Positions 13,788 through 54,743 of a DNA stretch of 60,804 nucleotides are shown piece by piece. A program made the translations under genes and the position numbers. This DNA comes from a virus. Its lineage: Duplodnaviria > Caudoviricetes. Position 1 is the first letter of the stretch; each line of letters begins with the position of its first letter. The notes beneath the pieces were generated by a model. The model searched no databases, was not told the DNA's origin, and saw only the letters and a list, made by a program, of their open reading frames with translations. Location: positions 1-60,804 of the IMG/VR virus record IMGVR_UViG_3300035670_000221, one strand, 5' to 3'.

Positions 13788-13792
13788 TCTGC

Positions 13793-14569: not shown

Positions 14570-14570
14570 A

Positions 14571-14753: not shown

Positions 14754-14758
14754 TTTTA

Positions 14759-14837
14759 CGGGGTGTAGCTCAGTTTGGTTTAGAGCGCGTGGTTTGGGTC
14801 CATGAGGCCGTAGGTTCGAATCCTATCACCCCGACCA
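14759..14837 (+). tRNA. tRNA-Pro(TGG)
   Basis: CGGGGTG/CACCCCG, CGTGG-TT TGG GT-CCATG, CCA. Confidence 0.95.
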
Positions 14838-14906
14838 ATTTCATAACAAAGGAGTGAAGTTTGCTGAAATTCGCCCTAAATAGGTTAGTTTTCAGCATTA
14901 ATAGAT

Positions 14907-15233
14907 ATGGGAAAGAAGCGAAGATTGCGTACTTCGTGGTTGTTCGCTGCTAAGATAACAGGTAATTTTCCATTCGATTTTCATTTTATGCGGGACGAAA
15001 GGACTAGTCAGATTCAATGTTCGTACTGCGGTAGATTTATACCGATAGATACGATGACTAGGGATCATGTATACCCTAAGAGTTTGGATGGTACTTATAC
15101 AACACCTTGTTGTACTCCATGCAATATAGCGAAAGAGGATAAGCGTCCTATAGAGTGGGCACTATTTGCAACGGAAAGCGAAATAGCGTTCGGAAAGGAG
15201 TGGGTGTTACCCAAAAATCGGGCGCAAGATTAG
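14907..15233 (+). CDS. HNH endonuclease
   Basis: CSYCG...TRDHVYPKS...CCTPCNIAK. Confidence 0.85.
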   Translation: MGKKRRLRTSWLFAAKITGNFPFDFHFMRDERTSQIQCSYCGRFIPIDTMTRDHVYPKSLDGTYTTPCCTPCNIAKEDKRPIEWALFATESEIAFGKEWVLPKNRAQD

Positions 15234-15308
15234 GCTGCGGTAATGTAAAGGTCAACATGACAGTCTTCCAAACTGTAAATCGGAGTTCGATTCCCCGTCG
15301 CAGCACCA
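15234..15308 (+). tRNA. tRNA-Gly(TCC), atypical A73
   Basis: GCTGCGG/TCGCAGC, ACAGT-CT TCC AA-ACTGT, A-CCA. Confidence 0.85.
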
Positions 15309-15309
15309 T

Positions 15310-15384
15310 GCGGTAATAGTATAACGGTAATTACATCGGCTTGCCAAGTCGAGGATCGGGGTTCGATTCCCCGTTACCGCTCCA
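15310..15384 (+). tRNA. tRNA-Gly(GCC)
   Basis: GCGGTAA/TTACCGC, TCGGC-TT GCC AA-GTCGA, T-CCA. Confidence 0.93.
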
Positions 15385-15407
15385 GCCGCTAAGGTAAACC
15401 AAAGGAA

Positions 15408-15551
15408 GTGGTAAAAGTGACGGAAGATAAGCGGCTGTTAATTACGCAATGGGCGCAAGATGCGGCAACAACTACAAAATATTATAAATTATTTATTGAT
15501 AGTTTGATAGCAATGCAGTTAATCTTTACTCTAGTGCTATTATTTTTATAG
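15408..15551 (+). CDS. Small hypothetical membrane protein (47 aa)
   Basis: GTG-start ORF between tRNAs with hydrophobic C-terminus (LIAMQLIFTLVLLFL). Confidence 0.4.
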   Translation: MVKVTEDKRLLITQWAQDAATTTKYYKLFIDSLIAMQLIFTLVLLFL

Positions 15552-15553
15552 AT

Positions 15554-15629
15554 GGGAATGTAGTTTAATTGGTAAAATGCTAGTCTCCAAAACTGGAAGA
15601 TGTAGGTTCGAATCCTGCCAGTCCCGCCA
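15554..15629 (+). tRNA. tRNA-Trp(CCA)
   Basis: CTAGT-CT CCA AA-ACTGG, G-CCA. One acceptor mismatch. Confidence 0.9.
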
Positions 15630-15643
15630 ACTTAAGGTGTACA

Positions 15644-15799
15644 ATGAAATGTTCTAATGTTAATTGTGCAAAGCAGTCTGATGAGTATTGCAATGTAGTA
15701 TTTACTAAGCCTTCTGATAGTGCCTCTTACACACTTTGTTTAGATTGCTACAGATTAGTTATACTTACAACTAGACGATTAATCGATAAGCCACGGTAG
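15644..15799 (+). CDS. Small Cys-rich hypothetical protein (51 aa)
   Basis: AAGGTG RBS, MKCSNVNC...LCLDC. Stop codon lies inside tRNA-Phe. Confidence 0.45.
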   Translation: MKCSNVNCAKQSDEYCNVVFTKPSDSASYTLCLDCYRLVILTTRRLIDKPR

Positions 15800-15866
15800 C
15801 TCAGTTTGGTAGAGCGATAGGTTGAAGCCCTGTGCGTCGGCGGTTCAAGTCCGTCCCGTGGCACCA
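15790..15866 (+). tRNA. tRNA-Phe(GAA)
   Basis: GCCACGG/CCGTGGC, ATAGG-TT GAA GC-CCTGT, CCA. Confidence 0.95.
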
Positions 15867-15885
15867 CTTATTTAGGAGTTATAGA

Positions 15886-16164
15886 ATGACGAAAGAGTAT
15901 GAATATGTAGTACCAAATTTAGGTAATACCAGTCTTACTACTGGTACTATAACATGGAACGATTATTGGCCTACTAGTACATATTATACTTATTGGTATC
16001 CTCAGACAATTTATAAGTATCAAGTGTTTTGTCCAAAGTCTAGATGCAAGGGTGTTACTTGGGGCGAGTTAAATACTACGGTAACTTGTCCTAAGTGTTT
16101 CTCTACTATTAAGTTAGTAAGTAGTCCAACACCTAAGCCAGATTACGAAGTCGAAGTGAGTTAA
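15886..16164 (+). CDS. Zinc-ribbon hypothetical protein
   Basis: AGGAG RBS before ATG 15886. CPKSRC...CPKC. Confidence 0.65.
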   Translation: MTKEYEYVVPNLGNTSLTTGTITWNDYWPTSTYYTYWYPQTIYKYQVFCPKSRCKGVTWGELNTTVTCPKCFSTIKLVSSPTPKPDYEVEVS

Positions 16165-16240
16165 GTTGGACCCAGTAATATTAATATTAATTGCAATAGT
16201 TTGTTTAGCAGCAGCATTCTATATTAGAAAAGAATACTAA

Positions 16241-16317
16241 GGGCCATTAGCTCAATCCGGCAGAGCAAGGGACTTTTAATCCACAGGTTGTAGGTTCAAA
16301 TCCTACATGGCTCACCA
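16241..16317 (+). tRNA. tRNA-Lys(TTT)
   Basis: GGGCCAT/ATGGCTC, GGA-CT TTT AA-TCC (upper two anticodon-stem pairs mismatched), CCA. Confidence 0.88.
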
Positions 16318-16488
16318 GATTATTTATGTTAGGTCTGATGTTCCGCGCCTATCGGGTTGGAGGAAGAAGGATAGGGCCAACCAAACCAAAGGGTGATATT
16401 ATGATTCTGTTAGCGTTTATCTTATTAGTATTATTGTTTGATGCTTTTGCAGTAACGCTAGGGGAGGATACAGCATTACGGGGGTAAA

Positions 16489-16686
16489 ATGGTACAGATA
16501 TGGATGCTATTCGAAGATAATACATTCGATGCTACACCACCAATAGAACGATACTTGGCTGAATTACTGGTCGCAGATATTGCTGGCGGTAATCCATGGC
16601 AGATTACTTCTAACCCTCCGTCATATAAGTATGTTAAGAAATTAATATTAATTCCTGTAGGGGTGCGTAACTCAAAGGTAGAGTAG
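16489..16686 (+). CDS. Hypothetical protein
   Basis: 65-aa ORF with GGGGG upstream. 3' end runs 26 nt into tRNA-Lys(CTT). Confidence 0.45.
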   Translation: MVQIWMLFEDNTFDATPPIERYLAELLVADIAGGNPWQITSNPPSYKYVKKLILIPVGVRNSKVE

Positions 16687-16735
16687 GAGACTCTTAATCT
16701 CTTAGTTGGAGGTTCGAATCCTCTCGCACTCGCCA
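16661..16735 (+). tRNA. tRNA-Lys(CTT)
   Basis: GGGTGCG/CGCACTC, GGAGA-CT CTT AA-TCTCT, CCA. Confidence 0.93.
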
Positions 16736-16736
16736 T

Positions 16737-27656: not shown

Positions 27657-28307
27657 ATGGTAACAATTTGCATCCCGACATATTTCGGCCCGCCCTTGGT
27701 TACAAATTGTGTGACTTCAATCATGGACAATGTAACCAATCCTATTATCATGGTATATAAGAATGATGTAGGCTGGCTTAAAGCATGTAATGAATTAATG
27801 TGGGCAACAACAACAGATATTATTCTATTAAACGATGATACTGTTGTTACATCAGATATTGTACAAGAAATGAAATCCCTTGCATATTCGGATGACCGTA
27901 TCGGAATTGTAGGAGGAAAGTCCCTGTCTCCTGATGGGGAACACATCAATAACTTTGGAATATATGTTGGATCAGATGGGAATACAGCACATAAATACTT
28001 TGGAGAATTAAAGGATAAAATTACGGAGCCTGTTACTCAGAAGTCAGTCGAAGGGTCATGTATGTATATTAAGAGAGAAGTTATTGATGCGATTGGCGTA
28101 TTCGATGAAAACTTTGGAATGGGCTACAGAGAAGAAGTTGATTATTGTTTTAGAGCAAGGGAAGCAGGGTACAAGATAGTATCCTCTCCTAAGGCAGAGT
28201 ACATACACTTGGTCAATCAAACTCATGGGCGATTGAATGTCCAGAATGACAAGTATGCGTACTTCATGGAAAAGTGGGGCGACAAACTCGCCACAGGAAA
28301 GATATAA
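27657..28307 (+). CDS. Glycosyltransferase family 2
   Basis: ICIPTY, IILLNDD, GSCMYIKREV..IG.FDE.F, EEVDYCFRA..AG. Confidence 0.92.
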   Translation: MVTICIPTYFGPPLVTNCVTSIMDNVTNPIIMVYKNDVGWLKACNELMWATTTDIILLNDDTVVTSDIVQEMKSLAYSDDRIGIVGGKSLSPDGEHINNFGIYVGSDGNTAHKYFGELKDKITEPVTQKSVEGSCMYIKREVIDAIGVFDENFGMGYREEVDYCFRAREAGYKIVSSPKAEYIHLVNQTHGRLNVQNDKYAYFMEKWGDKLATGKI

Positions 28308-38632: not shown

Positions 38633-39391
38633 ATGCCAACACCAGCGTACTTAGTAAAATATAATAACTATACCCTCCCAGGATTTGCACAGAGGGAATC
38701 GTTTGATTCAGTTACCAACATTGCCGACCACTATGCAGCCTATGTCGATGGATCATTGTCCGAAGATTTAGGGCTGGCAAATAAACAATTGACGGTAGGC
38801 ATGAAAGTTTGGGAGCAGGATTATATGACCTGTAAGGATCAAGTACAACTTGCTGCTACTATGGTGAGAAGTACGAAAGCCTTTGCTCCCCTTTATGTAG
38901 GCTATACAGATAAGCATTACATGGCTATGGGTAAGTCAGTAACTACGGAGAAGGATGCTGGTACTTCGGTACGCACTCTTGATTACGAGGTTCAGTTTGA
39001 ATGTAAACCGTGGCTGCAAAGTGATACTACCCATGTACTACATTACGGTGCTGTAACTGATCCTGTTACCATTACAACAGATGTAGTAGGGAGAACCATC
39101 GCTAATGGTGGGTGGACTCCAACAACACTTTATATATCCGGCGAAAATATTACTGTAAGTGGATATACATCTACAGGGGAGTTTACTGGCTTTATATCAA
39201 TATCTGGACAAGTTGCTCAATATGGAATATTCTCAGAAGATTTTGTGGCTATCAACGCCTCTGGTGTTAATGTAATAACAGAGATTATGCCGGTAGATTT
39301 TAGATTATATGTTGGGCCGGGAAAAACTTCCTTCTATATAACGGGCGCAGTATGGGCTAGATTAGAATATAACGATAGGTGGTATATCTAA
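38633..39391 (+). CDS. Distal tail protein (Dit-like)
   Basis: 252 aa after tape measure. YVDGS, FECKPW, terminal YNDRWYI. Confidence 0.75.
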   Translation: MPTPAYLVKYNNYTLPGFAQRESFDSVTNIADHYAAYVDGSLSEDLGLANKQLTVGMKVWEQDYMTCKDQVQLAATMVRSTKAFAPLYVGYTDKHYMAMGKSVTTEKDAGTSVRTLDYEVQFECKPWLQSDTTHVLHYGAVTDPVTITTDVVGRTIANGGWTPTTLYISGENITVSGYTSTGEFTGFISISGQVAQYGIFSEDFVAINASGVNVITEIMPVDFRLYVGPGKTSFYITGAVWARLEYNDRWYI

Positions 39392-39423
39392 TACAATAGG
39401 GAATCTCAAATACAATTGAGGGG

Positions 39424-42400
39424 ATGGAAATGTACACAGAGTATAGAGAGTTTGGGCAAGCATTAGCCCTAGTCGTAGGCTTCACGGATAACCGTGAAGA
39501 TGCGCTAGATTTTGGCGTGCTTGCCCCTCTTTATTTTTCTCAGTCCCCGTTTGTATTTACCAAGTCTGTAACTGATGGTTTAGAGAAAGTAAGACCTGAC
39601 GGCGGTAGCCCCGGTCAGAATGCTGTAGCATGGGCTAAGATAACCCTTCCCGGTAATAAGGTTCAGAATGTCTATATAGATAACTTTAATAGTTCAGAGT
39701 ATCCAAGTTATGCAGCAAATTATGATACAACTTACTATACTGCATTTATAGGCTCTAAAACCTATGGTATAGATTACGACTTTACAATATATGATGAAGA
39801 TTTTAATATCGTATCAACTGGAAACGCCGCTCCAATGGGAGATGACAGAATACAGCCATCATTCGTTAGAATGTATGCAACACTATCTCCCGGTAAGACT
39901 TACTGGATACGAATTGATGACTGGCACGCTAGCGGGGGTTGGAGAATACATGGTGAATTTCAGCAATATTTTCCGTCAGGTAATGCATTTGTTTATTTCT
40001 ATAACTATAATAATGACGATTATCTGCGACATACCGTTAGCATTTATCTTGGCGACCCAGCACAATTTGCACAAGCGAGAGTGCTAATTGATTCTCCTGT
40101 AAAGATAGCAACCGGTAATACAAGAACATGGATTACAAGGCCCGATGCTCAAGCCTATGCCATGACATATGTTGTCAAGCCGTATAAATTTGCGGCTACG
40201 CAAACGCTTATCATTAATGGATATAAATATGCGCAAGCCCGAGTATTTATTCGGGTGCAGGGAAACTATGCACAAGCAAATGCTAGAATAACGGATACAT
40301 ATGCTATACGCTACGCTCAGGCAAGAGTAAGGATCGCATATACTGGTGGTTTCGCTAACGCACAAACATGGATAGAAACTGAATATTATCAACCAGCACA
40401 GTCTGCTACCCTCATCGTATTCGGTGGAGCGTTAGCACAGGCACAGGCTTCCATAAATCAATCCTCCTATGTAGCACAGGCTCAGGCATATCTTTATTCG
40501 TTTGATCAGCCAGTACACGGACAAGCACTTACAAGCACTAAGGTTGAAACCTATGCTTGGGCGCAAGCAATGGTTTGGATAAAATTAAGAGCATATGGCG
40601 GCGCTCTCCTAGATACCTTTGATAGAACATCGACTGATCATTTATCATTCAACCTTGGCATGGCAAATACTGGGCAGATATGGCAATATGCAGGTGGTTA
40701 CTGGCAAGAATGGAGAGCGCATGTATATCCAGATAGCGGTAATCTAGTAGTAGAAAATCCTGGTACTTATAGTTATAATTATGTTTATGCCAAAACAAGT
40801 CCTTCACTACCAAGTATTAAAGAGTCTGGTACTGTAGAATTTGATATCTATATTCCTGCACAAAGATATAGTGGATATACTGGTTATCATTATATGTACT
40901 GGTATGATATAGATTGGTATTTTTATCTATATGATTACTCTGATACTACTTATCGTATGAGAGTAAATAGTACAAGTGTATATCTAGAAGTTACTCCTGA
41001 AAGAGAGACTTGGTATTCTGTAAAAGTTTCTTTTGATGTAACTGGTGAAGGTAGCAGTACTTATGCTAAGGCAAAGATGTGGAAGAGAGGTACTACCGAG
41101 CCTGAATCTTGGACTAGAATTCTTAGCGTTTATCCTTATACTAGTTATTATGATGAACCTCAATTATATATTTCTACTCCTTATATTAGAAAATATGACG
41201 GTATTTATGATAACCCACTAGGATTATTAGATAATTTAAAGATAACTACTCACTTTGATCAATATTTTAATCAAGGGTACGCTAATGCTACGGCAGACAT
41301 ACTTGCAATAAGTGATCATCCTGCTCAAGCACAAGCCTCAATAAACCAGTCCTCGTATGTGGCGCAAACACGGGTATGGGTTAAACAAACCTATAATATT
41401 TATTCTCAAGCACAAGCATGGATTAAGAAGGGCTGGGGATTTGGATTAGCGGGCGCTAAAATTAAATGGGTGCCTGATATTTATGCCAGTAAAGTCATCG
41501 AAGATGGGGCTACACACCTATATGGTATACACATTAAACCCTATCCTACTGAATATTATTGGCAAGACGAAATAGGTAATGCCAACTCTATTTATTATTA
41601 TTGGACTTATCTTAATACTGTAACTTCTCCTGTGCGCCCTGAAAAGATTGGCGCTTTTATGAATTACTACCGAGAATATAGACGATGGTACGATAATATA
41701 GTAGAAGAATTTTGGGGCGATAGATCGTGGACCATAGAAACATGGGTTAAATCACCACAGACTGCAAGTTATAGAAGCACAATCTTTGATCTGCGAGCAG
41801 GAAATAGTCCATACTATTATGTAACTGTATACTTTGGTAGCAACACGGGTGGAAATGGTAACAAGATTGTTACTTACTTTAATAACCCGGTAGATGTGAC
41901 AGAATATGCAGATACAGGCATAGTATATACTCCTAATACTTGGTATCATGTAGTATTAACTTATTCTAATAAAGAATTTAAACTTTATGTTAATAGTGAA
42001 TTAAAGACTACAACACAGCGGCCTAATTGGAATTTTAATACTAGTTCAGCCATATTTAGTATACATTATTCAGGCTGGTTTGGTTATAATAGTGGTACAT
42101 CAGAAGGTTTAAGCTATGATAACCTTGCTATTTATCCTCTAATTCTTACACCAGAACAGATATACGACCACTATCTATATGGTGTAGCACCTACTGGTCA
42201 AGCGCTGGCTTCAATTAACCAGAGTAGTTATGTAGCACAAGCACAGGCACGGATACTACGAACATATCCTAATGCTGACGGCCCCGGCCCATTCGCTCAG
42301 GCTGGTTTCTTGTATCGTACAGGACTATGCTTGGCACAGGCTATTGTTTATATCAGTCCAGCATTTGATCAAAATGTCTTTGGTCAAGCACAAGCGCGCA

Positions 42401-45400
42401 TAGTCGGTGTTCAATTCTACGGACAAGCACAGGCAATTATTCATGCACGCGATGGTATTGCTGCTAGGGTATTTGATGGGAATGCTAATAATATTAATGA
42501 TGTAGATATTCTTAGATTATGGGAATATTATAACGAAATTGGCCCACTTGAACCACAATACACTTACTCTCCACTAAAAATACCACCCACAGGTTTTCCT
42601 ACTACATTGGGTGGAACAATATCGGAAAACTGGGGAATTGTATGGGTTGCAAACTTTGTCGCAGATGAGGCAGGGGTATGGTATTTCTCTTCTGTTCACG
42701 ATGATTGGACTTATGTAGGTATTAAGAACTGGTCAACAGGTACCACAACTACCGTAATAAACAATACTGGAACTGGTACACATACGGGCAGTATAAATCT
42801 TACAGAAGGCCAGCAATATACCTTAGTCTGTGGCTTTAGTAACGGCGGTGGCCCTTGGTATATAGGATTAAAATACGGAAGACCGGGTAAGGGGTCGGCT
42901 GTTGACTACTTAACAGATGATAACCCCCCATGGATACCGGCATCTTCTCGTTATAAGAAAGCACAAGCAAATGCTTGGATCGTTTATATTGATCCAAATA
43001 GTGGGGCAACAGTTTGGCCTACATTTAGCCAAGCAAATGCTAGAATTCAGTACTCTAACCTACAAGCATACGGACAAGCGACTGTACAGTTTGGCACTTG
43101 GCGACCAGCACAGGCAATAGCACAGATAGCCTACAGCGTTACAGATAACTATAGGGGAGTAGTTCTTGCTGATAAGCCCATCTTCTACTTCCCCCTAGAT
43201 GATATGAGCGCTTCCTATAGTGCTTCTACTTACTATTCTGCTGCTTATCTTCCAGACCTAGCCGCTGACGGAAATACAAACGATGGTTGGGCAAGTCTAG
43301 GGTATAGTGCAGGAAATACTTGGTGGCAAGTTAATTGGAGAGAGCCGCAAACAATCCAGACTGTTACAGTAACAAACCGGCCCAACTATACAATGGGTTC
43401 AGGAAGAATTCTGTTTAGCGATGGATCATCGTTTAGTGTTACTTTCCCGTCCGCAGCAAGAGGGGTTTCTAACTACAGCACGCCTGTAACAAATGTTACA
43501 TGGATGAGATTAATAAGTGATTCTGGAGGAAATACAAACCCCGGCTTCTCAGAAGTAGAAGCATTCAATGGCGATACTAGAAATCTTGTTAGATGGCCGA
43601 TAATTAGCGGTATAGAAATAGAGCCAACAAAACTTAAAACCATTGTTGGTAGAAGAGATGCTACTTGGTCATCTACTATAAACCCGACCGGTACTCTTAA
43701 TACTGCTGTAGGATTTGGCGGGGCCGTTGATTTTAATAACATGGATGCAGTTGTTCCCGCTATTAATAGTGGTACAACAGGTGAAACTCTTACTTTCCCC
43801 GGCACATGGAAGACAGAAAGCAGTAGCTTTAAATTATCAACCCAGTTCTGGTTAAATGCAGGGGATACTGTAACTATTGATTTAACAAATGTGTATTGTA
43901 GTGGCTACAATATATCGCTGGGCCTATGGAAAACAAACGACGGCTCTACATCAGAAAATACCTATGCTTATATAGGAAGCGGGCCGATAACCGGAACCTT
44001 TACTAGAACAGCAACACAGACAGGTATACATTATATTTATATATATACGAGTGGAGGTCAGTCTTATCCACCAACTGGATCGGGCACCATTTCCTACCCC
44101 AACTATAATATAGAATCCTCTTTACCTATAACTGACGGCTCTCCCATAACTGTAGAATTTTGGTTAAATTATGACGGCCAAGATCAGAAAATGGTCCTAG
44201 GTTTTACTCATTATGATATTTTCTTAAGAAATACAGGTGCAATAGGATTTAATGATGGTGCAGGAAACCATTGGGGAACGCTTGGGATATCCGCAAACAA
44301 CTGGCATCATGTTGCTGCTGTTATGTACACGGGGCAAGCAGCCAATGTTGCTAACAAGATTTATATCGATGGCGTACAGAAAACACTATCTTGGATTTCT
44401 GGTACTGGAATAAATGTTAGGTATTTTTCTGAAAGGTTTGTTCTTGGTGGCTGGAATAGTAATACAAGTTATCGTGCTACATTCCCTATTGATGAATTAG
44501 CTATCTTTAACTACGAATTAACAGCCGAGCAAATATTAAATCACTATCAAGCTAGAAAGAATCAAGGCTACGCTATAGCACAAGCAAGAATAATAGCATT
44601 CGATGTTCCTCAAGTTGCTCAGGCTCAAGCGCAGTTTGGTACTTGGCGACCGGCTCAGGCATTAGCAAAGATCAATGCGTTTGATTGGCCGCAACAAGGA
44701 CAAGCACAGACATTAATTAGCACACGATACGGCCTAACTCGTATGACTTGGACCTCGCTATCGTCCAATGAGCCTGAACGATGGGGCGTAGGGAATATCT
44801 ACCGTTATGATATAGAGGGTATAAGAGGCTATCCAAATTATTCAGAATACGGTGAAAATCCCACATCATGGATTAGAGATGATGACTGGGGTATGGCGTG
44901 GTCTGTCCGCTTTACAGCAGATGCAACAGGTACTTGGCAATTTCAGACCATTTCTGATGACGGTTCCGAAGTACGAATTGATGGAGCTATAGTTGTAAAT
45001 AATAATTTTGGTGGGGGTCAAGGATCAACTACTAGATCAGGATCGATAACCCTTACCCAAGGACAAGAGTATAACTTACACGCACGATGGGGGCAAGGCG
45101 GCGGTCCTTGGAATATCACTATTCAATACAAGCGACCAACCGATTTATCTTGGCAGTATTTAACAAGTAATAATCCACCATGGATACTGGAATATTTCTA
45201 TGCTGGATTTGGTCAGGCTCAAGTATATACACAGAAAGGTATACGCTACGAGGGAGTAGGTCAAGCTCAGGCACGCTTAATTGCATTCGGTGTTGAGGGC
45301 GTTGGACAAGCATTAACTACTATCTTGCGCCCGTACCGAGTATATGCTCAGGCATTAGTACAACTTACAACTTCCTACCATCCAGCACAGGCCAAGGTTT

Positions 45401-47787
45401 CGATTAAAGCTACCGCATATAAAACAGGTCAGGCGCGTGTACAAATTGGTACATTTAGATATGCACAGGCTAAGACTAGAATTATTGCCTTCGATGTATC
45501 TAGATTTGGACAGGCACAAACTTATATAAGTAGGTCATTCTGGACTCACGGACAGGCGCGAACACAAATTAAGCAGACTTATCCACTATTTAGTATAGAT
45601 ACTAACTATGCTACAGCAGCCTACGGGGCAACAATTACTGCTAGCCCTGACTACACAGTAGAGGGCGCAGTAGAAAATATCATAGACAGTAGCGCAATTA
45701 GTTATTGGGAAAGCCTTGTAATCTTCGATGTAGGGGCCGAAGACCCCTATATGTATGTTACAATTGATTTAGGAACCAACAGACCAATTTCTGCATTCTC
45801 TATACTAGCTAGTAAATACAATGCTACCGTTGAAGTACAATACAATGAGTACGGATGGGGCAATTACTGGGTAACTCTTGACACCGTTACATTCCCTGTA
45901 AGCGTAGGAGAAGACCTTGATCCCGTAGCTAACACGGTTCATAGATCATTCCCAACACTTAATAAGAGACTATGGAGATTAAAGATCACCAATGGTGGGG
46001 ATGACAGTAGAATAGCCATAAACACATGGCAACTAGGTAGTTACTCTATAAAGGGCGCGACTTTCGCCCAAGCCTTGGCGCAATTAGGTAGATTTGGTCA
46101 TGCACAAGCAGGGTACTATATTAGCCCAGGTTTAGGTACCCAAATAGGTCAGGCTAAGGCACAAATAGTACAAACTTATCGGGTATCTGGTCAGTCTTAT
46201 GCATTTATCATACCGCCAACTTATTTTGGTAATGCGCAAGCATCTATTATCCAAGTATACCAACGCTATGCAAGCACTATAGCGTGGATTCTGCCTCCAA
46301 CAGCCTACGCTCAGGCTCTAGCAACCATTCATGCCTATGATGTTAACAACATTGGACAGGCTATTGTTAGCGTGCTTACCCAGTATTCTGTGGAGGGTCA
46401 GGCAGAAGCCAGTATCATCAAGAGTGCCGGATATGCTACAACACAGGTCGCAATATTTAGACGAACATTTATATTTAGTCAGAGCATGGTATCTGTTGGG
46501 CACTTCCAGTACGGGCTTGCCATGGCATTTATTGTAGCCCAGTATAAGTACTCCCAATCACTAGCAACTGTTAAACAAACATACCATAAATACTCACAGG
46601 CAGCAGTATCAATCCAAAGATTTGAACGATGGGGATATGCCCTAGCAACTATTCTACAGACCTATAGAAACCCATCGAATACAGGTCACGCACAAGCAGT
46701 AATCAATATGGGTTGGGGACTGGGACAGGCACTAGCCACAGTTATACAGACCTATCGAAAGTACGCTACCACAACAGTTTGGATAGAGGCTACATATGGT
46801 CAACCCGCTCAGGCTCTTACTAGCCTGTTCATAGAAGTATGGCAACTCGCTAACGCTAATGCACATATAGCCGAGAGACACTTTGGAATAGGTAATGCTA
46901 CAACGCAGATCGGATACTTCAAGTATGCTCAAGCTCAGGCACGAATGATAGCGTTCAATGTCCCTAAAGTTGGAAATGCGGGCTGTTATATAAAGGTGGA
47001 CATAAGTATTCCAAATATTATTCCGTCAAGTGATCGAGCATCGTACTTGATAACATTTAATGGAGAGAGAATTCCAGGCTATGTACAAAGTGAGTCGTTT
47101 GACTCAATTCTAAATATAGTTGGATACAACAATCCATACTATGACGGCTCAATGAGATATCCAGATTATAATTATACACAAAGTTTTGCTGCATACAACG
47201 GACTAGAGAATAAGACAATCACATTGACTGTTATCGTATGGGAGCCTACTTACATGGAGTGCAAGGCACGGGTGCAAGAAGCAGCAACCATTCTAAAGTC
47301 TGCTAGAGGAAAATATAGCAAACTATATATACAAAACTATGATAAGTATTACCTAGCGATGCCAAAGAGCCTTACAATGGAGAAGGAAGCCTACACTAGC
47401 GGCCAAAGGCTAGAGTATCAACTAACATTCGATGCAAAGCCGTGGCTAATAAGTAATGAAACCTATAGCATCCTTAACGCTGTTGGTACAACAGATACAG
47501 GCGCAAGAACGATAGCAGACGGTGGATGGACTCCAACTAAGATCATAGTTTCGGGCACAGATATAGAGATAAGTGGAATGACTGACTCATTAGAGAGTAC
47601 AGGCACGGTAAATATTAGTGGCACAGTTACAGATTTTATTATAGACACAGAAGAATTTACTTCAAGTGATAATAGTGTTATTACTCCGAAGGATTACGGT
47701 ATTTATGTAGGTCCGGGTAGAACAACTTTCCATGTAACGGGCGCTACAAATTGCAGGATTGAATGGAAAAATAGATGGCACTTATAA
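39424..47787 (+). CDS. Giant QA-repeat tail fibre with LamG/PA14/discoidin-like domains and a C-terminal Dit copy (2787 aa)
   Basis: LamG motifs (WTIETWVK, WYHVVLTY, IDELAIFNYELT), two PA14-like units (SVHDDW, ISDDGS), F5/8-like units. Last ~250 aa align with 38633..39391. Confidence 0.82.
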   Translation: MEMYTEYREFGQALALVVGFTDNREDALDFGVLAPLYFSQSPFVFTKSVTDGLEKVRPDGGSPGQNAVAWAKITLPGNKVQNVYIDNFNSSEYPSYAANYDTTYYTAFIGSKTYGIDYDFTIYDEDFNIVSTGNAAPMGDDRIQPSFVRMYATLSPGKTYWIRIDDWHASGGWRIHGEFQQYFPSGNAFVYFYNYNNDDYLRHTVSIYLGDPAQFAQARVLIDSPVKIATGNTRTWITRPDAQAYAMTYVVKPYKFAATQTLIINGYKYAQARVFIRVQGNYAQANARITDTYAIRYAQARVRIAYTGGFANAQTWIETEYYQPAQSATLIVFGGALAQAQASINQSSYVAQAQAYLYSFDQPVHGQALTSTKVETYAWAQAMVWIKLRAYGGALLDTFDRTSTDHLSFNLGMANTGQIWQYAGGYWQEWRAHVYPDSGNLVVENPGTYSYNYVYAKTSPSLPSIKESGTVEFDIYIPAQRYSGYTGYHYMYWYDIDWYFYLYDYSDTTYRMRVNSTSVYLEVTPERETWYSVKVSFDVTGEGSSTYAKAKMWKRGTTEPESWTRILSVYPYTSYYDEPQLYISTPYIRKYDGIYDNPLGLLDNLKITTHFDQYFNQGYANATADILAISDHPAQAQASINQSSYVAQTRVWVKQTYNIYSQAQAWIKKGWGFGLAGAKIKWVPDIYASKVIEDGATHLYGIHIKPYPTEYYWQDEIGNANSIYYYWTYLNTVTSPVRPEKIGAFMNYYREYRRWYDNIVEEFWGDRSWTIETWVKSPQTASYRSTIFDLRAGNSPYYYVTVYFGSNTGGNGNKIVTYFNNPVDVTEYADTGIVYTPNTWYHVVLTYSNKEFKLYVNSELKTTTQRPNWNFNTSSAIFSIHYSGWFGYNSGTSEGLSYDNLAIYPLILTPEQIYDHYLYGVAPTGQALASINQSSYVAQAQARILRTYPNADGPGPFAQAGFLYRTGLCLAQAIVYISPAFDQNVFGQAQARIVGVQFYGQAQAIIHARDGIAARVFDGNANNINDVDILRLWEYYNEIGPLEPQYTYSPLKIPPTGFPTTLGGTISENWGIVWVANFVADEAGVWYFSSVHDDWTYVGIKNWSTGTTTTVINNTGTGTHTGSINLTEGQQYTLVCGFSNGGGPWYIGLKYGRPGKGSAVDYLTDDNPPWIPASSRYKKAQANAWIVYIDPNSGATVWPTFSQANARIQYSNLQAYGQATVQFGTWRPAQAIAQIAYSVTDNYRGVVLADKPIFYFPLDDMSASYSASTYYSAAYLPDLAADGNTNDGWASLGYSAGNTWWQVNWREPQTIQTVTVTNRPNYTMGSGRILFSDGSSFSVTFPSAARGVSNYSTPVTNVTWMRLISDSGGNTNPGFSEVEAFNGDTRNLVRWPIISGIEIEPTKLKTIVGRRDATWSSTINPTGTLNTAVGFGGAVDFNNMDAVVPAINSGTTGETLTFPGTWKTESSSFKLSTQFWLNAGDTVTIDLTNVYCSGYNISLGLWKTNDGSTSENTYAYIGSGPITGTFTRTATQTGIHYIYIYTSGGQSYPPTGSGTISYPNYNIESSLPITDGSPITVEFWLNYDGQDQKMVLGFTHYDIFLRNTGAIGFNDGAGNHWGTLGISANNWHHVAAVMYTGQAANVANKIYIDGVQKTLSWISGTGINVRYFSERFVLGGWNSNTSYRATFPIDELAIFNYELTAEQILNHYQARKNQGYAIAQARIIAFDVPQVAQAQAQFGTWRPAQALAKINAFDWPQQGQAQTLISTRYGLTRMTWTSLSSNEPERWGVGNIYRYDIEGIRGYPNYSEYGENPTSWIRDDDWGMAWSVRFTADATGTWQFQTISDDGSEVRIDGAIVVNNNFGGGQGSTTRSGSITLTQGQEYNLHARWGQGGGPWNITIQYKRPTDLSWQYLTSNNPPWILEYFYAGFGQAQVYTQKGIRYEGVGQAQARLIAFGVEGVGQALTTILRPYRVYAQALVQLTTSYHPAQAKVSIKATAYKTGQARVQIGTFRYAQAKTRIIAFDVSRFGQAQTYISRSFWTHGQARTQIKQTYPLFSIDTNYATAAYGATITASPDYTVEGAVENIIDSSAISYWESLVIFDVGAEDPYMYVTIDLGTNRPISAFSILASKYNATVEVQYNEYGWGNYWVTLDTVTFPVSVGEDLDPVANTVHRSFPTLNKRLWRLKITNGGDDSRIAINTWQLGSYSIKGATFAQALAQLGRFGHAQAGYYISPGLGTQIGQAKAQIVQTYRVSGQSYAFIIPPTYFGNAQASIIQVYQRYASTIAWILPPTAYAQALATIHAYDVNNIGQAIVSVLTQYSVEGQAEASIIKSAGYATTQVAIFRRTFIFSQSMVSVGHFQYGLAMAFIVAQYKYSQSLATVKQTYHKYSQAAVSIQRFERWGYALATILQTYRNPSNTGHAQAVINMGWGLGQALATVIQTYRKYATTTVWIEATYGQPAQALTSLFIEVWQLANANAHIAERHFGIGNATTQIGYFKYAQAQARMIAFNVPKVGNAGCYIKVDISIPNIIPSSDRASYLITFNGERIPGYVQSESFDSILNIVGYNNPYYDGSMRYPDYNYTQSFAAYNGLENKTITLTVIVWEPTYMECKARVQEAATILKSARGKYSKLYIQNYDKYYLAMPKSLTMEKEAYTSGQRLEYQLTFDAKPWLISNETYSILNAVGTTDTGARTIADGGWTPTKIIVSGTDIEISGMTDSLESTGTVNISGTVTDFIIDTEEFTSSDNSVITPKDYGIYVGPGRTTFHVTGATNCRIEWKNRWHL

Positions 47788-47796: not shown

Positions 47797-50700
47797 ATGT
47801 TACAGATAAGAATAGTTACTCCAAACTTTGAATATGGGATTGCCTTTGATAATCCTGTAATACTTGAGAACGCTACTGATATTACTTTGTCTAAGACTGT
47901 AAATTCAAGCGACGAAGGCATTCAATTCTCTTTCCCCCTTAATGATCCTAAAAATCAATTTATAGATTATACCAAATGGTGGGAGTGCTGGGATACCAAG
48001 ATCAACCAGCGTATCAATTACGGCCCTATACACTCTATACAGAGAGTAAGTGGAGAAGCAAAGCAGATCAGCGGGCCGGGTAGGTCAGCGATACTAGCCG
48101 ATCATTATAGAAGTTTACAGTCATTCTATCAGCCAATTGATCAGTTCCTAGATGACTTAAGATTTGAGAATTTATCTATACAGCCAAGAACAAGAACAAA
48201 TATTAATAACTATCTAGAAGATGATATAGATAGTAGTAGAGATGACTATTATAGAGTTAGTTTAAATAGCAAAGATTTTGCTATCGATGAGCAAACAGGT
48301 TATATAGCAATTGGTAAGGATGCCCCCGCTAGAGGGCAAATAAAAACTAATCAACATTGGGCCGGTACTTATAAATCAGATTGGCTAGAGATTGATTTAG
48401 GTAGAAAAGCAGCAATAACTAAAGTTAAAGTACTACTACCTTGGTGGGGAGGGGCCACCAATAATACTACAAGAGCCTATGATTGGAAATGGCAGTATTC
48501 AGCAGATAATGCAAATCTTTGGAATTTATATGGGGATGACTATCCTCTATATAGAAGTTGGACTAATGTATATCAATCTCCAATACCTAATTATGAAGTT
48601 TTAAGGCCCCCTGATGGAAAAATTTTATATTTTGGTGACGATGGATATGAAAGAAATCAATATACCGCTAGTGGTAGCCCTATATACGCTAGATTTTGGA
48701 GACTAAGTATAACAAATACTCATGCTTGGTACACTAAAGCAGATGGTACTAAGTCTGATCAGTATAATTGGGAGTGTAGAGGCAGCAATGTGTTCTTGGG
48801 CAAAAGTAAGAAATCACCGCGCCCATCTAAAGGTCCAATTATTCCGACAACGGGAGTCAATACATATAGCGATTGCTACGCTTCGGCAGTAGAGATAAGT
48901 TTATTTAAAACTATTTTAGATAGAGATGAGTTAACTGATATTATTTATCAAGAAATTCAGAATGATAGTAAACAAATAACTTATAATCGAACAGTCTTGG
49001 CAGAGGAAATGAGAAATCATACCTTTAAACAATCAGATGGTTTAAAGGTAGCCGGTAAGAAGTTTGAGCCTGGAACATTCTTTAGACGGGGCTATATGTC
49101 TGGAACAACTGTAGATGTTTATGATGAGTTTAATCATAAAATTTGGAATGATTTAACAAATAGGAATTTCAAAACTCCTGCTTTCAGTAGATTATTAAAG
49201 TTTAATAAAACAAGTGCTAGAGTTATGTCTATTGATGCATGGAGGGGTAGGCTTGATCCTTACTCTCACGGAGGAAGTTATGTATATTGTACCGAACAAA
49301 ATGATTCAGCAGTTATAGATTTTAGAGGAATTTCTTTCAAGTGGTATGCAACTGTTCCTGATACTAGTCCTATTGTTACAAATCCAGACGGTAGACAAGT
49401 TGGACAGGGGTTTGTTAAGATTGAAATTAGGTCTAAAACTGGTGGAGTACACTCGCACCCACCATCAGCCAGAACATTGAAAGCAAATCCTAAGGCACCT
49501 ACATGGATTGACCCTGTAACAGAATGGAGTGCGTGGGAAACATTAGAGGATAATTTCCCTGTACCTGTAGGAGTAAGCGGTGAAAAGATATGGGAGATTA
49601 CTCCCGAGTCAGAAATTCTTGAAAGAGATAAGTCTTATCAAATTAGAATAACTAATTTAAATGCAGGATTTGTTTCTATTGATGCTTTTGCTGGATACTG
49701 GTCAGGCTCAATGCATGAATTAAATGAAGATGACGAACGCATAGCTTTGAATAGACCAACAGAAATAAGACAGTACTTTCATAAAAAATATACAGGTGGT
49801 AGTGTTTATGGATGGAGAAAGTCTTTAACCACAGGGACTAAGCAATCTTTATCATTTGTAGGAGATAGAGTAATTATTTATTCTAGAAAGGGTCCAAATT
49901 ATGGTGTAATTGAAATACAAATGAGCGCTTATGGCTATGACTCTAATGGTAATTATATTTCTGGAGTATTACGAATACCTACAGGTACAGTAGAAGTTAA
50001 CGATGTAGATGTACCTACTTATAATTCTGACGGTAGGATATCTATTAATTTAAATAGGTCTACCGAAATTCCACAATATGTAGTATTTGATAGTAATGAT
50101 TATTTTACAAACGGGCTACCTTGGGGACGATACACGGTTTATGTTATTAAAGACTCTAAAACTGGTCCTATTTGGATAGATGGCATGTCTGTACATGAGA
50201 CTAATGGGCTTAGTGTTAAGTTCTTAAATACTTCTTATTTGGATATCCTTAAGTCTACAGCCGAAGCACTTCAAATGGAGTGGGAAATAACTGAGAGAGG
50301 GTTACGGGTAACTCCTAGAATTGGATATGATACAAACTTTGTTGCAGCCGAAGGAAGGGGCGCTACAATTAAAATAGATGAGGCCGATGATGTTAGTAAG
50401 GTAGCAACCATGCTCCTAACTACGGGCGCAGATATTGAGGGTCTACCATTATGGACACTAACAGAAAATAAAACCAATAGAGATATAATGGGTAGAACAG
50501 TACAAAGAGAGTACGATTCACTAAGAAATGTAGCCGATTACTACACGCTTATCGGTGTATCTAGAGGAGAATTACTTAGAAGGCGGGAACCAGAAAGAAG
50601 AATAACTGTAACAACCTCTGATATTAGTAACCTACAACCGGGGGATACATTTATTGTTAAGACTCCTGAATTAGAAAAGCGGGTGCGTGCAAATACTATT

Positions 50701-50886
50701 TCTAGAACACAAGGCAGTAATGGAACAGAGTATACAATAGAGTGTACTTCGTGGCCTATTGAGCCTATTGTTCCTAGAACTATTGCTGGAAAGTCCTCCT
50801 TCCCTATTGTACCAATAGAGGAAAGAATACTCCCATCCGATCCGTATTACGGGGAGTATTATAAGAAAGTTACAGATGTATTTTAA
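47797..50886 (+). CDS. Tal/baseplate hub-like protein with inserted carbohydrate-binding-like domains
   Basis: Position after Dit. WLEIDLG discoidin motif, two galactose-binding-like inserts (FRG/FVG), C-terminal LQPGD OB-like region. Confidence 0.7.
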   Translation: MLQIRIVTPNFEYGIAFDNPVILENATDITLSKTVNSSDEGIQFSFPLNDPKNQFIDYTKWWECWDTKINQRINYGPIHSIQRVSGEAKQISGPGRSAILADHYRSLQSFYQPIDQFLDDLRFENLSIQPRTRTNINNYLEDDIDSSRDDYYRVSLNSKDFAIDEQTGYIAIGKDAPARGQIKTNQHWAGTYKSDWLEIDLGRKAAITKVKVLLPWWGGATNNTTRAYDWKWQYSADNANLWNLYGDDYPLYRSWTNVYQSPIPNYEVLRPPDGKILYFGDDGYERNQYTASGSPIYARFWRLSITNTHAWYTKADGTKSDQYNWECRGSNVFLGKSKKSPRPSKGPIIPTTGVNTYSDCYASAVEISLFKTILDRDELTDIIYQEIQNDSKQITYNRTVLAEEMRNHTFKQSDGLKVAGKKFEPGTFFRRGYMSGTTVDVYDEFNHKIWNDLTNRNFKTPAFSRLLKFNKTSARVMSIDAWRGRLDPYSHGGSYVYCTEQNDSAVIDFRGISFKWYATVPDTSPIVTNPDGRQVGQGFVKIEIRSKTGGVHSHPPSARTLKANPKAPTWIDPVTEWSAWETLEDNFPVPVGVSGEKIWEITPESEILERDKSYQIRITNLNAGFVSIDAFAGYWSGSMHELNEDDERIALNRPTEIRQYFHKKYTGGSVYGWRKSLTTGTKQSLSFVGDRVIIYSRKGPNYGVIEIQMSAYGYDSNGNYISGVLRIPTGTVEVNDVDVPTYNSDGRISINLNRSTEIPQYVVFDSNDYFTNGLPWGRYTVYVIKDSKTGPIWIDGMSVHETNGLSVKFLNTSYLDILKSTAEALQMEWEITERGLRVTPRIGYDTNFVAAEGRGATIKIDEADDVSKVATMLLTTGADIEGLPLWTLTENKTNRDIMGRTVQREYDSLRNVADYYTLIGVSRGELLRRREPERRITVTTSDISNLQPGDTFIVKTPELEKRVRANTISRTQGSNGTEYTIECTSWPIEPIVPRTIAGKSSFPIVPIEERILPSDPYYGEYYKKVTDVF

Positions 50887-51928: not shown

Positions 51929-53056
51929 ATGAATGAATTACAAAATATAGGAAAAAGTCTAGCTAAAACTAGAAAAAGTAAACAACAAAATGAACGCCGT
52001 ATAACTAAAAATACTCCAACAGTAGAGCGAAAACTGGATATTATTGCCTCTGATACTAATTATGTATTAGAATTTCCTTATAGAAACGCTAATAATGTAA
52101 TGTTAAATATATATATCAAACCTGATAATTGTTGTGAATGTCTGAAAGGTTATACACCAGAAGGGAGACAGGCTTGGGGAGATATAACGGGTTATGAAGG
52201 AGTTCCGCCTCCAACTAGTATCCCATCGGATATCCCTGCCTCTGGTGGAGCGGAAGCAAACTACACAGGACCGGTATCAGATGGTTTATACCATCAAAAT
52301 ATTCTTAGTAACATTGGAACAGCAGGAGTAGACGATAGTTCTTGGTTCGCATATCCCGGCTACCCTTTCTTTCATTTACTAGATGGTTGGGATACCAATC
52401 CGGTTAATAGATACGGTGATTTTACTTCTACTAGTATGTCATTAATTACTCCTACAGACGGAGTTTATTTAATAAAGTATACTGCTAATGTAACAGGAGT
52501 AACTACAAATACTAGTAAAGTAACTGCTGCTATAAGAACGAGGGCCAATGGTACAGATGAATGGATAAATTCTTCTACTAAAATATTTTCTATTGAGAAA
52601 GGAAACTTAGGGGAAGATTTTGAATACGGAGTAAACGGTAGACTTTATTTGAACATATTAATTTATGCTATATGCTATCCATTAAAAGCCTTAGAAGAGG
52701 TAGCGGGGTGGATTAAAGCAGAAGATGTTCTTTACTGGAATCCTATGGGTCTTGGAAATGGTAGACTTGAGGTAACTTTAGTTGGAGAGGGTTATGGTAT
52801 AATAACAGGCATAATTACAGACAATGCAACTGGGCTACCTTTAGTTGGCGTTGATGTATATCTAGATTATGATATTGCTAGAGAGCCAGCGTACACAGAT
52901 GAGACTGGAAGATATACATTCTACAATGTGCGCCCAGGTCAGCAAAAAGTAACTGCTTCCAAGTCTAATACTGATGGTTATATAGCACAAACTCAAATGG
53001 CTACAGTTAAAATAAATGAAATTACTACTTTAGGTTTCTTATTAACACATTTATAG
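51929..53056 (+). CDS. Tail-tip protein with C-terminal carboxypeptidase-regulatory-like domain
   Basis: Anchor module, ITPTDGVYLI domain, GIITGIITD..G.PL.GV.V...TDETGRYTF.NV.PG. Confidence 0.62.
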   Translation: MNELQNIGKSLAKTRKSKQQNERRITKNTPTVERKLDIIASDTNYVLEFPYRNANNVMLNIYIKPDNCCECLKGYTPEGRQAWGDITGYEGVPPPTSIPSDIPASGGAEANYTGPVSDGLYHQNILSNIGTAGVDDSSWFAYPGYPFFHLLDGWDTNPVNRYGDFTSTSMSLITPTDGVYLIKYTANVTGVTTNTSKVTAAIRTRANGTDEWINSSTKIFSIEKGNLGEDFEYGVNGRLYLNILIYAICYPLKALEEVAGWIKAEDVLYWNPMGLGNGRLEVTLVGEGYGIITGIITDNATGLPLVGVDVYLDYDIAREPAYTDETGRYTFYNVRPGQQKVTASKSNTDGYIAQTQMATVKINEITTLGFLLTHL

Positions 53057-53331: not shown

Positions 53332-53556
53332 ATGGTAAAATGGACTATAGAATCCTCCTTAGATAGAGAATACATCTATGAGAAAGCAGCAATGCTTGGA
53401 TGGTTTGACGATCCACCAAGAGTACAAGTACGAGAGTATATTGGTATGGAGGGACGCTGGTATCTAATAGAACCGTATGAAGAGGAATGCAATTGCCCTA
53501 GTTTGATACGCCCAACGAAAGCGTTGGCAAGTAGGTTAGGTAAAGGAGAGCAATGA
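53332..53556 (+). CDS. Hypothetical protein
   Basis: 74-aa ORF coupled to neighbours. Confidence 0.55.
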   Translation: MVKWTIESSLDREYIYEKAAMLGWFDDPPRVQVREYIGMEGRWYLIEPYEEECNCPSLIRPTKALASRLGKGEQ

Positions 53557-54743
53557 AAATTTTATTTGTAGGGGACTCACCGACTGTTAATACAGGCTTT
53601 GGAATAGTCTCTAGAAACTTATTAAACAGACTTTATAATAAAGGTCATGAAATTCATGTGCTGGGAATTAACCATCATGGAGAGCCTTATGATCAGAGGA
53701 AATTTCCATATCCGATCCATCCCTGCGAACCGGGCGGGGGGATGGACAAGTTGTTTGGCCTCAACCGTCTATGGCAGATTGTACCACATGTGCAGCCCGA
53801 CCTTCTATTTTATTTTAATGATCCGTGGATCATAGAGAAATACGAGCAGCACAGGCCCGCAACTATCTCGGCCCCCTACCTCAAGAGGATAGCCTACTTC
53901 CCTATCGATGCTGGCCCCCTCAAGCCTAGTACAGCAGAGTTTCTAAGTGAATTAGATGCTCAGATTTGTTATTCAAAGTTTGCAGAGCGTATTGTTATAG
54001 AAGCAAACAAGGGGGTGAGGCCGGATAACTTACACCAGATATATCACGGAGTAGACTCTGATATATTCTATCCAATAAACCAGCAGAAAGCACGGCAGCA
54101 ATTAGGCATTCCTTTAGATGCATGGGTAGTAGGCATGGTAGCGCGCAATCAGTATCGAAAGAGATTTGATATATTGATTAGTGCGTTTGCCAAATTTGCT
54201 AAGGACAAGCCTGATGCAAAATTATACTTACATACAGCCGTAGATGATGTTGGATTTGATTTAGTTGATTTGATCAAGAATCAATTTGATCTAGAAGGTA
54301 AGTTAATTCTTACCGAAGGGGTAACGCCGGCTAAGGGAGTTCCAGATGAGATGCTAAATCTTATCTATAATTCCTTTGATGTTAATGCTCTTATTAGTCT
54401 TGGCGATGGCTTTGGATTACCGGTGGCAGAGTCCATGGCAGTAGGGTGTCCGCAGATTGTGAGCGATCACTCTTGTTTGAAGGAATTAGTTGATGGTCAT
54501 GGCGGTTTAACAGTTAAGAATGCTGGCTGGCTACTACATACTGCTGGCATTAATACTTGGGGCGGATTAACAGATGAAGATGATCTAGTACGGAGTCTAG
54601 AATGGGCTTACAATCACAAGGAATTAATGCGTAAGCGCGGAGAAGATGGGTACAACTTTATAAAGCAGCCCCAGTTTAACTGGGACAATATTGCTGATGA
54701 GTTTGATAGTCTCATAAAGGGACTATTTCATATTATTAATTAA
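53553..54743 (+). CDS. Glycosyltransferase family 4
   Basis: TGFG, IYHGVD, ARNQYRKR, GDGFGLPVAESMAVGCP. Confidence 0.92.
   Translation: MKILFVGDSPTVNTGFGIVSRNLLNRLYNKGHEIHVLGINHHGEPYDQRKFPYPIHPCEPGGGMDKLFGLNRLWQIVPHVQPDLLFYFNDPWIIEKYEQHRPATISAPYLKRIAYFPIDAGPLKPSTAEFLSELDAQICYSKFAERIVIEANKGVRPDNLHQIYHGVDSDIFYPINQQKARQQLGIPLDAWVVGMVARNQYRKRFDILISAFAKFAKDKPDAKLYLHTAVDDVGFDLVDLIKNQFDLEGKLILTEGVTPAKGVPDEMLNLIYNSFDVNALISLGDGFGLPVAESMAVGCPQIVSDHSCLKELVDGHGGLTVKNAGWLLHTAGINTWGGLTDEDDLVRSLEWAYNHKELMRKRGEDGYNFIKQPQFNWDNIADEFDSLIKGLFHIIN

Follow-up and report, generated by a model that had tools for sequence, protein, structure and literature searches.

IMG/VR record IMGVR_UViG_3300035670_000221, an uncultured virus sequence analysed here over its full 60,804 nucleotides (the window, a 60.8-kb record estimated to hold about half of the genome), carries in its tail module two neighbouring genes whose products share a domain resembling the distal tail protein (Dit) of siphophages. 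One encodes a compact protein, P0001; the other encodes P0002, in which the same domain stands at the end of a giant chain of repeats and lectin-type domains. Both lie between the genes for the tape measure protein (TMP), P0004, and a Tal-like protein, P0003, in the order TMP, short Dit, long form, Tal-like, all on the + strand (Table 1). The P0001 gene starts 13 nt past the TMP stop codon, and its ATG is preceded by AGGGGGG, 6 nt upstream; the true start of the P0002 gene may be the ATG at 39430, judged from the position of a GAGGGG.

Table 1. Features of the tail module, with positions in the window
Feature	Position	Strand	Basis or remark
Open reading frame (ORF) in major-tail-protein position, putative tube protein, 396 aa	31292-32482	+	Position; two small ORFs next
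Tape measure protein P0004, 1677 aa	33587-38620	+	Pfam PhageMin_Tail E 1.1e-16; phrog_167 tail length tape measure E 3.4e-19
Short Dit P0001, 252 aa: belt domain (~res 1-130) and galectin-like domain (~res 131-252)	38633-39391	+	AF2 model, fold matches
Long form P0002, 2787 aa: repeat and lectin-domain putative fibre fused to C-terminal Dit domain	39424-47787	+	Single open frame; homologous giants in 13 other loci
P0002 N-terminal (distal) domain, res 1-210	39424-40053	+	No Pfam match at E <= 0.05
P0002 first GQAQAxI-type repeat block, res ~210-390	40051-40593	+	Motif positions
P0002 globular domain, res 390-628	40591-41307	+	No Pfam match
P0002 Laminin_G_3 (ConA-like lectin) domain 1, res 766-913	41719-42162	+	PF13385 E 1.2e-23 whole protein, 1.8e-15 cut segment
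P0002 PA14-like domain a, res 1006-1174	42439-42945	+	Likeness to PA14 domain b; own Pfam match GLEYA E 0.017, below cut-off
P0002 F5/8 type C (discoidin) / DUF7402 domain, res 1266-1356	43219-43491	+	PF00754 34.1 bits (cut-off 28.2), PF22633 38.3, PF24135 37; confirmed on cut segment
P0002 Laminin_G_3 domain 2, res ~1569-1704	44128-44535	+	PF13385 E 4.5e-15
P0002 PA14 domain b, res 1817-1905	44872-45138	+	PF07691 38.5 bits (cut-off 24); E 2.3e-11 cut segment
P0002 possible second F5/8 type C domain, res 2050-2209	45571-46050	+	PF00754 E 7.8e-4, 20 bits, below 28.2 cut-off; lead only
P0002 last, longest repeat block, res 2209-2535, reaching Dit domain	46048-47028	+	Motif positions 2209-2496; aligned with eight homologues
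P0002 C-terminal Dit domain, res 2540-2787, with 11-residue loop insertion relative to P0001	47041-47787	+	42% identity to P0001
P0003, 1029 aa, probable Tal / baseplate hub, F5/8C-like insert at ~res 184-261	47797-50886	+	By position; follows Dit genes

A short and a long Dit-like protein

An AlphaFold model of P0001, built from an alignment of 31 rows (A1; 30 of the 77 near-length matches, P0001 itself counted, together with the P0002 C-terminus), has a mean pLDDT of 84.3 and a pTM of 0.75. An earlier note on this DNA had taken both copies for Dits and had proposed a Foldseek comparison with Dit structures as a check. In that comparison with the PDB the SPP1 Dit, gp19.1 (2x8k), stands first (E 2e-10, TM 0.66/0.68), followed by the monocin tip and by NF5, Douge, 80alpha, TP901-1 and p2 baseplate chains. 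An independent structural search (VIA) gives the same picture, with 216 of 242 residues aligned for 2x8k over the model range 3-251 (Z 15.4, rmsd 4.0); the first seven rows are all siphophage or monocin tail-tip entries, and six Dit-level chains besides 2x8k score between Z 11.4 and 14.2. Tube proteins, Hcp and myophage baseplate proteins match the model in the same search over its first ~130 residues only, with Z no higher than 10.8, and the matches include the Hcp2-Hcp3 heterohexamer entry 9vnd. A comparison with the predicted viral structures of BFVD returns 103 at E <= 0.001; distal tail protein and siphovirus-type tail component are frequent names among the 50 best listed.

Sequence comparison brings little to this identification. 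The best Pfam match of P0001 has an E-value of 0.041, to unrelated families and to no Dit family, and PHROGs give no match; one of the 31 members of A1 weakly matches phrog_184, baseplate hub (E 6.6e-4). The best match of the A1 profile among PDB sequences has E 0.16, and hhalign of A1 against SPP1 gp19.1 returns a probability of 0.33, a single-sequence target being too weak a test. We conclude that P0001 is a Dit because its model shows the full two-domain fold, an N-terminal belt (tail-tube-like β-sandwich, helix and long hairpin) and a peripheral galectin-like domain at the C-terminus, and because its gene directly follows that for the TMP.

The relationship of the long form to P0001 is apparent from direct alignment. 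BLASTP aligns residues 5-252 of P0001 with residues 2540-2787 of P0002 (109 of 260 positions identical, 42%; 64% positives; E 9e-60), while every other segment of P0002 gives E >= 0.75. This is the end-to-end likeness between the 252-aa gene product and the last ~250 residues of the 2787-aa protein to which the earlier note had drawn attention; the motif pairs that it quoted (PGFAQRESFDS/PGYVQSESFDS, RTIANGGWTPT/RTIADGGWTPT, YVGPGKT/YVGPGRT and DRWYI/NRWHL) are present in the alignment, and its boundary at ~47035 agrees with a homology that begins at about nt 47041. A profile matches the P0002 C-terminus over profile positions 4-250 (E 6e-97). When the genome is searched with the Dit unit exactly two places are found, the second at 47041-47784 (E 3e-57), and no third. 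The last ~250 residues of P0002 are thus probably an old Dit paralogue, homologous to P0001, and 42% identity to a protein modelled with the Dit fold argues that this copy, too, is a Dit. Separate translation of the C-terminal part had been named as what would overturn the proposal; the reading frame runs through without a break, and ahead of the Dit part we saw no canonical internal start codon preceded by a ribosome-binding site.

The remainder of P0002 bears out the description of its N-terminal ~2500 residues as multi-lectin, several lectin-type domains being matched in Pfam, all of them N-terminal of residue 2210. For Laminin_G_3 the whole-protein score is 84.4 bits (cut-off 27.6), in two stretches that are 30% identical over 89 aa (E 9.8e-05). 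Residues 1006-1174 and the PA14 segment 1765-1930 are 41% identical over 109 aa (E 1.4e-22). The likeness within each of these pairs suggests that P0002 grew partly by internal duplication. A weak, sub-threshold match suggests a PPC-like domain at residues 1400-1560, and residues 390-628 resemble, by eye and unscored, the domain behind the first repeat block of P0082, P0085 and P0087. The peptide ASINQSSYVAQ occurs three times in near-identical form in P0002, followed by repeat, at residues ~340, ~636 and ~927, and FGTWRPAQA twice, at ~1220 and ~1735; these sites look like junctions of recently duplicated repeat-plus-domain cassettes. Taken together, P0002 is a putative adhesin with at least five domains of carbohydrate-binding type (two LamG, two PA14 and one F5/8C), for which glycan binding would be expected.

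Between the globular domains runs a ~14-residue repeat, with 45 matches in P0002 to the motif [aromatic]-G/A-Q-A-Q-A-x-I. Besides the first and last blocks there are further blocks at residues 628-670, 919-1006, 1174-1235, 1726-1765 and 1930-2050. In the pooled homologues the spacing is 12-16 aa with a mode of 14 (804 cases, and 358 for each of the spacings 13 and 15). The two alanine positions are A in 84% and 73% of repeats and the isoleucine position is I in 83%, alternating with polar positions; the glutamine is invariant by definition of the motif. This alternation suggests a β-strand with one small, hydrophobic face. The block at residues 1926-2052 has no match among PDB sequences.

In 10 related loci a P0003 homologue, 29-55% identical, stands behind the Dit genes. 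Only one of the 11 homologues matches Prophage_tail (PF06605), and weakly (E 0.0017); F5_F8_type_C_2 (PF22633) is matched by six of the 11, with a best E-value of 2.3e-7, the window's own protein reaching only 0.016. Protein atlas leads for P0003 are 'tail protein' at 0.90 and Prophage_tail clusters at 0.85; those for the tail end of P0002 reach at most 0.83. P0003 has no match among PDB sequences, and hhalign of its alignment (A3) against SPP1 gp21 gives a probability of 0.07, an uninformative single-sequence result, since the Dit pair, whose shared fold is known, fails this test as well. Beyond the Tal-like gene, a 375-aa ORF (51929-53056) has a C-terminal CarboxypepD_reg domain (E 3.7e-9) and may be a further tail-tip or fibre component.

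Relatives, genome context and age of the pair

The long form is not peculiar to this virus. A profile search of 1.84 billion protein representatives gave 146 matches at E <= 0.001, of which 95 are at least 400 aa in length and the longest 3747 aa, so that P0002 is not the largest member. At least five repeat motifs are present in 86 of these 95; of the remaining nine, four have three or four motifs, and the other five (481-607 aa) lack the motif and have their Dit match at the N-terminus. In most of the long proteins the Dit match reaches the last residue, and in four there are 140-390 aa more behind it. Short forms account for few library clusters because they evolve more slowly.

Synteny was compared across 16 sources, the window and 15 IMG/VR loci (given by L numbers where they must be told apart); L011 and L012 have an identical short Dit domain and the same coordinates, ORF lengths and scores across the region. 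At 12 of the 16 loci a short Dit gene directly follows that for the TMP and a repeat-rich giant (1005-3049 aa) ending in a Dit match lies downstream. At two more, L004 and L008, the repeat-rich ORF (2446+ and 1308+ aa) is cut by the contig end, which brings the combination of short Dit and repeat-rich giant to 14 of 16. The other two, L014 and L017, are the most distant (43% and 36% identity) and have a single Dit gene, with that for the P0003 homologue immediately behind it. The arrangement with a long form therefore marks a whole uncultured phage clade and is not special to the window genome.

Three long forms match only the belt half of the Dit profile (positions ~4-135): those of L011 and L012 (11577-17369) end at the belt half, and that of L016 (10756-19902) has ~140 unrelated residues after it. 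In L017, repeats of the GQAQAxI type occur in other tail-region ORFs (16516-17370 and 18624-20810) that have no Dit domain, which suggests that in this phage group the repeat moves between proteins as a shaft or linker. Of the 14 double-Dit loci, ten have from one to three additional genes (239-576 aa) separating the short form from the long form, and their products have no counterpart among the window ORFs at E <= 1e-5; no such gene is present in the window, L010 or L016. In many relatives a gene between the two belongs to a P0081-like family of 337-370 aa without a Pfam match (L003 7644-8675, with homologues in L005, L008, L009, L013, L015 and L017), which is missing from the window. Fusion of the relatives' accessory genes of 340-360 aa into the window giant was considered and rejected, as BLASTP finds no window ORF at E <= 1e-5.

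How old is the duplication? In a maximum-likelihood tree of 25 Dit domains, which omits the three belt-only long forms because of their length, the long form of the window pairs with that of L010 (100/98), away from the window short form, and on this ground a recent duplication within this genome is rejected. The long/short label needs two changes on the tree, of which the starred branches force only one, and monophyly of the nine long forms is not rejected by the AU test (24 rows, the duplicate L012 being dropped; p 0.41). The sub-clades are congruent across both halves, with L005 and L013 grouping with L007, and the window near L010. From this grouping and congruence the short and long forms seem to have been inherited together since a single old duplication. 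The long-form Dit domains have evolved faster, with end branches of 0.2-0.75 compared with 0-0.56 for the short forms of double-Dit loci, and a mean top-residue frequency of 0.58 compared with 0.71. Both copies have 44 conserved positions in common; a further four are conserved in the short form only and none in the long form only.

Relatives of the window lie on contigs of 105-124 kb. The structural module of the window includes the large terminase (TerL, 19975-21564) and portal (21564-23252) genes. No sheath family was matched among the window ORFs scanned, and there is no tube-sized gene between the 396-aa ORF and the ORFs in chaperone position; for these two reasons the virus is probably a siphophage, with a genome of ~105-125 kb. 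The 396-aa putative major tail protein itself has no match in a PDB sequence search. No cultured relative of the clade appears among 50,697 phage records, in which tblastn and blastn find no match for P0001, P0003 or the TerL-portal DNA; the best TerL there, from one mangrove-soil phage, is 24.6% identical, and a genome-contig scan found no relative.

Elsewhere in the window, three consecutive very large ORFs at 2-10814 (822+ aa with the 5' end open, 1522 aa and 1257 aa) have no Pfam match at E <= 0.001. Positions 11206-18701 hold 19 tRNA genes in an array on the + strand, interspersed with small ORFs; the same stretch encodes a C-5 cytosine DNA methylase (11977-12984, E 2e-46), a second protein of methyltransferase type (13888-14427) and an Amidase_2 protein whose tail is a coiled coil (17492-18370). 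The tail module has a glycosyltransferase gene on either side, one GT2-like, inside the head-tail block (27657-28307), and one GT4, after the tail genes (53553-54743; phrog_2170, E 3e-50), which hints at modification of virion or host glycans.

Proposed anchoring of the long form at the tail tip

How might a chain of this length be held on the tail? The explanation that accounts best for these observations, to which we give a probability of about 0.65, is a ring of the short Dit together with a P0002 adhesin anchored by its C-terminal Dit domain in the tail-tip ring system. P0001 would form the ordinary Dit ring, the joint between tail tube and Tal trimer. The N-terminal ~2535 residues of P0002 would make a long string, with short GQAQAxI runs as shaft or linker bearing the lectin-type and several unclassified domains, and its Dit domain would make this fibre a covalent part of the rings that surround the tail axis. 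Because the Dit domain is C-terminal, the fibre would be anchored by its C-terminus and have its free tip at the other end, a polarity opposite to that of most phage fibres.

Ring incorporation, stoichiometry and the fibre nature of the repeats are what we infer from the sequences. Insertion into a ring appears to be the retained role of the long form, since those of L011, L012 and L016 keep only the belt, or ring-forming, half of the domain; the conserved positions common to long and short forms point the same way. In Jabs, a peripheral insertion (I1) lies near the N-terminus of the Dit belt domain, and since this region can carry peripheral additions an N-terminal fusion is plausible within a ring. 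We slightly favour an arrangement in which short and long copies alternate in one hexamer, which would carry three fibres and match the three-fold Tal, because duplicated subunits need no new interface to co-assemble from the outset. For OE33PA, each Tal subunit is described as engaging two Dit subunits. An alternating ring of this kind is predicted for the ceduoviruses c2 and bIL67 (PMC12474359), and the Hcp2-Hcp3 heterohexamer among the fold matches (9vnd) is a further precedent.

Four points weigh against this explanation as a whole. Neither P0001 nor the P0002 C-terminus matches any Dit family in Pfam or PHROGs; the ring role of the P0002 Dit domain is read from homology; and P0003 is only weakly identified as a Tal, by its sequence and place. 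In the homologue P0082, finally, the last repeat ends ~6 residues before the first Dit strand, a gap over which a trimeric shaft arising from ring-spaced subunits is hard to reconcile, so that monomeric arms or a ring-symmetric structure would fit better.

An alternative that is nearly as likely as the alternating ring, and taken singly somewhat unlikely, is a stack, in which a P0001 hexamer is accompanied, above or below, by a second coaxial hexamer of six P0002 Dit domains carrying six fibres. The gene order TMP, short, long, Tal-like would then mirror the order of the stack, and the presence of a short-type Dit alone in L014 and L017 implies that this type can fill a ring by itself. There are precedents in the extra tube-like p140 ring of T5 (PMC10038345) and in the second Dit ring proposed for p2. 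A stack would, however, require a new Dit-on-Dit interface, and the long form has no conserved positions of its own that might mark one; six chains of 2787 aa on a single ring would also be crowded.

It is improbable, in our estimation, that the long-form domain instead docks on the outside of the P0001 ring or of Tal, for example by β-sheet extension of the galectin domain, which would make P0002 an ordinary side fibre with an unusual anchor. In Jabs an accessory protein does extend the β-sheet of the Dit galectin domain, and the faster evolution of the long-form Dit domains would suit a peripheral site, but the three relatives with reduced domains have lost or replaced the galectin half and kept the belt, the opposite of what galectin docking predicts, and the conserved positions of the belt domain are common to the short form. 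Very improbable is a separate Dit of ~250 aa released by an internal start or by proteolysis, leaving a virion with two free Dit paralogues and a Dit-less fibre: a Shine-Dalgarno-like AAGGTGG does lie just upstream of the domain boundary (46993-46999), and the N-terminal extensions of library proteins grade in length from 46 through 106 and 190-200 aa upwards, but no in-frame ATG, GTG or TTG follows within 5-12 nt, the next in-frame TTG being 47 nt away and, by eye, inside the first Dit strand, and 12 of 16 loci and 95 of 146 library matches retain the fusion, which argues that the covalent link matters.

The preferred explanation, a short Dit ring with P0002 anchored in the ring system, may be extended to its relatives. 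In its broadest form it would hold that an obligate hetero-oligomeric Dit assembly, alternating or stacked, mounts fibres of reversed polarity of up to 3747 aa across a large uncultured clade, on shafts of a new 14-residue GQAQAxI repeat whose fold lies outside those of solved fibre shafts. This extended form is tentative, and we put it a little short of even odds.

Comparison with known tail-tip proteins

P0001 is like the Dits of SPP1 (gp19.1, 2x8k), TP901-1, p2 and 80alpha and the monocin tip protein in its belt and galectin-like domains (Z 12.4-15.4 over 215-222 residues) and in the place of its gene after that for the TMP. It differs from them in having only 9-12% identity, in belonging to no Pfam or PHROG family and in having a second copy fused behind ~2535 residues.

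The evolved Dits (evoDits) of phages of lactic acid bacteria, in which carbohydrate-binding modules on the Dit aid adsorption, resemble P0002 in joining binding domains to a Dit. Their modules are modest insertions inside the galectin domain of the sole Dit. In P0002, by contrast, the additions are N-terminal, ten times the size of a Dit, and belong to a paralogue that exists alongside a plain Dit; its Dit part aligns with P0001 with an insertion of only 11 residues, and no module lies within the galectin domain, the feature by which evoDits are recognised. The Jabs Dit, with insertions I1 and I2, is similar to the evoDits in its insertions.

Adjacent genes for Dit/Hcp-like paralogues are found in the ceduoviruses c2 (L15/L16) and bIL67 (ORF35/ORF36), whose products are predicted to alternate in one hexamer that leads from the tube to the Tal trimer (PMC12474359). 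The general statement in the earlier note, that Dit is a single-gene hexamer, thus meets predicted exceptions in these alternating two-paralogue rings (PMC12474359). They are unlike P0001 and P0002 in being AlphaFold predictions of similar-sized proteins with C-terminal decorations, described as including carbohydrate-binding module domains, and that account reports no giant N-terminal fibre on either protein (PMC12474359). In T5, p140 forms an extra ring that arose by duplication of the tube fold and, beside the Dit, mounts side fibres together with the p132 collar (PMC10038345). Unlike P0002, p140 is a duplicate of the tail tube protein and not of Dit, it is a trimer, and the fibres are held non-covalently through a separate collar (PMC10038345). 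The lactococcal phage p2 is proposed to have two Dit-level rings in one tail tip, a likeness to a stacked arrangement, though both rings there come from the same gene and no fibre is fused to either.

The repeat may be compared with the triple β-spiral shafts of adenovirus fibre and reovirus sigma1, which have a ~14-16-residue repeat with a conserved small or glycine position and alternating hydrophobic residues. The GQAQAxI repeat differs from these in having no PDB sequence match, and a simple trimer is made less likely by the mere 6 residues that separate the repeat from the Dit domain in some relatives. As a candidate new shaft or linker element it could be of use in fibre engineering.

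Searches of the open-access PMC and bioRxiv literature brought up evolved Dits, second Dit rings and rings of two paralogues, but neither a Dit extended at its N-terminus nor a fibre that ends in a Dit domain, and the fixing of a fibre to the tail by a C-terminal Dit copy suggests a way of attachment so far undescribed. If the explanation favoured here is right, the ring position would fix the copy number of the fibre, the fibre could grow by duplication of cassettes at its free N-terminal end, and the pair would be a natural case of a homomeric phage ring made heteromeric by duplication. The family is large, with at least 86 clusters (at 50% identity) of proteins of at least 400 aa with at least five repeat motifs; its members are now annotated as hypothetical because they are invisible to Pfam and PHROGs, and naming it would improve the annotation of metagenomic phages. 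Dit is the hub of siphophage adhesion devices, to which receptor binders are known to be added either as modules inserted in Dit or as proteins of their own that dock on it. A conserved second Dit gene joined to the end of a giant, modular lectin fibre would, if the explanation holds, be a third way of adding them.

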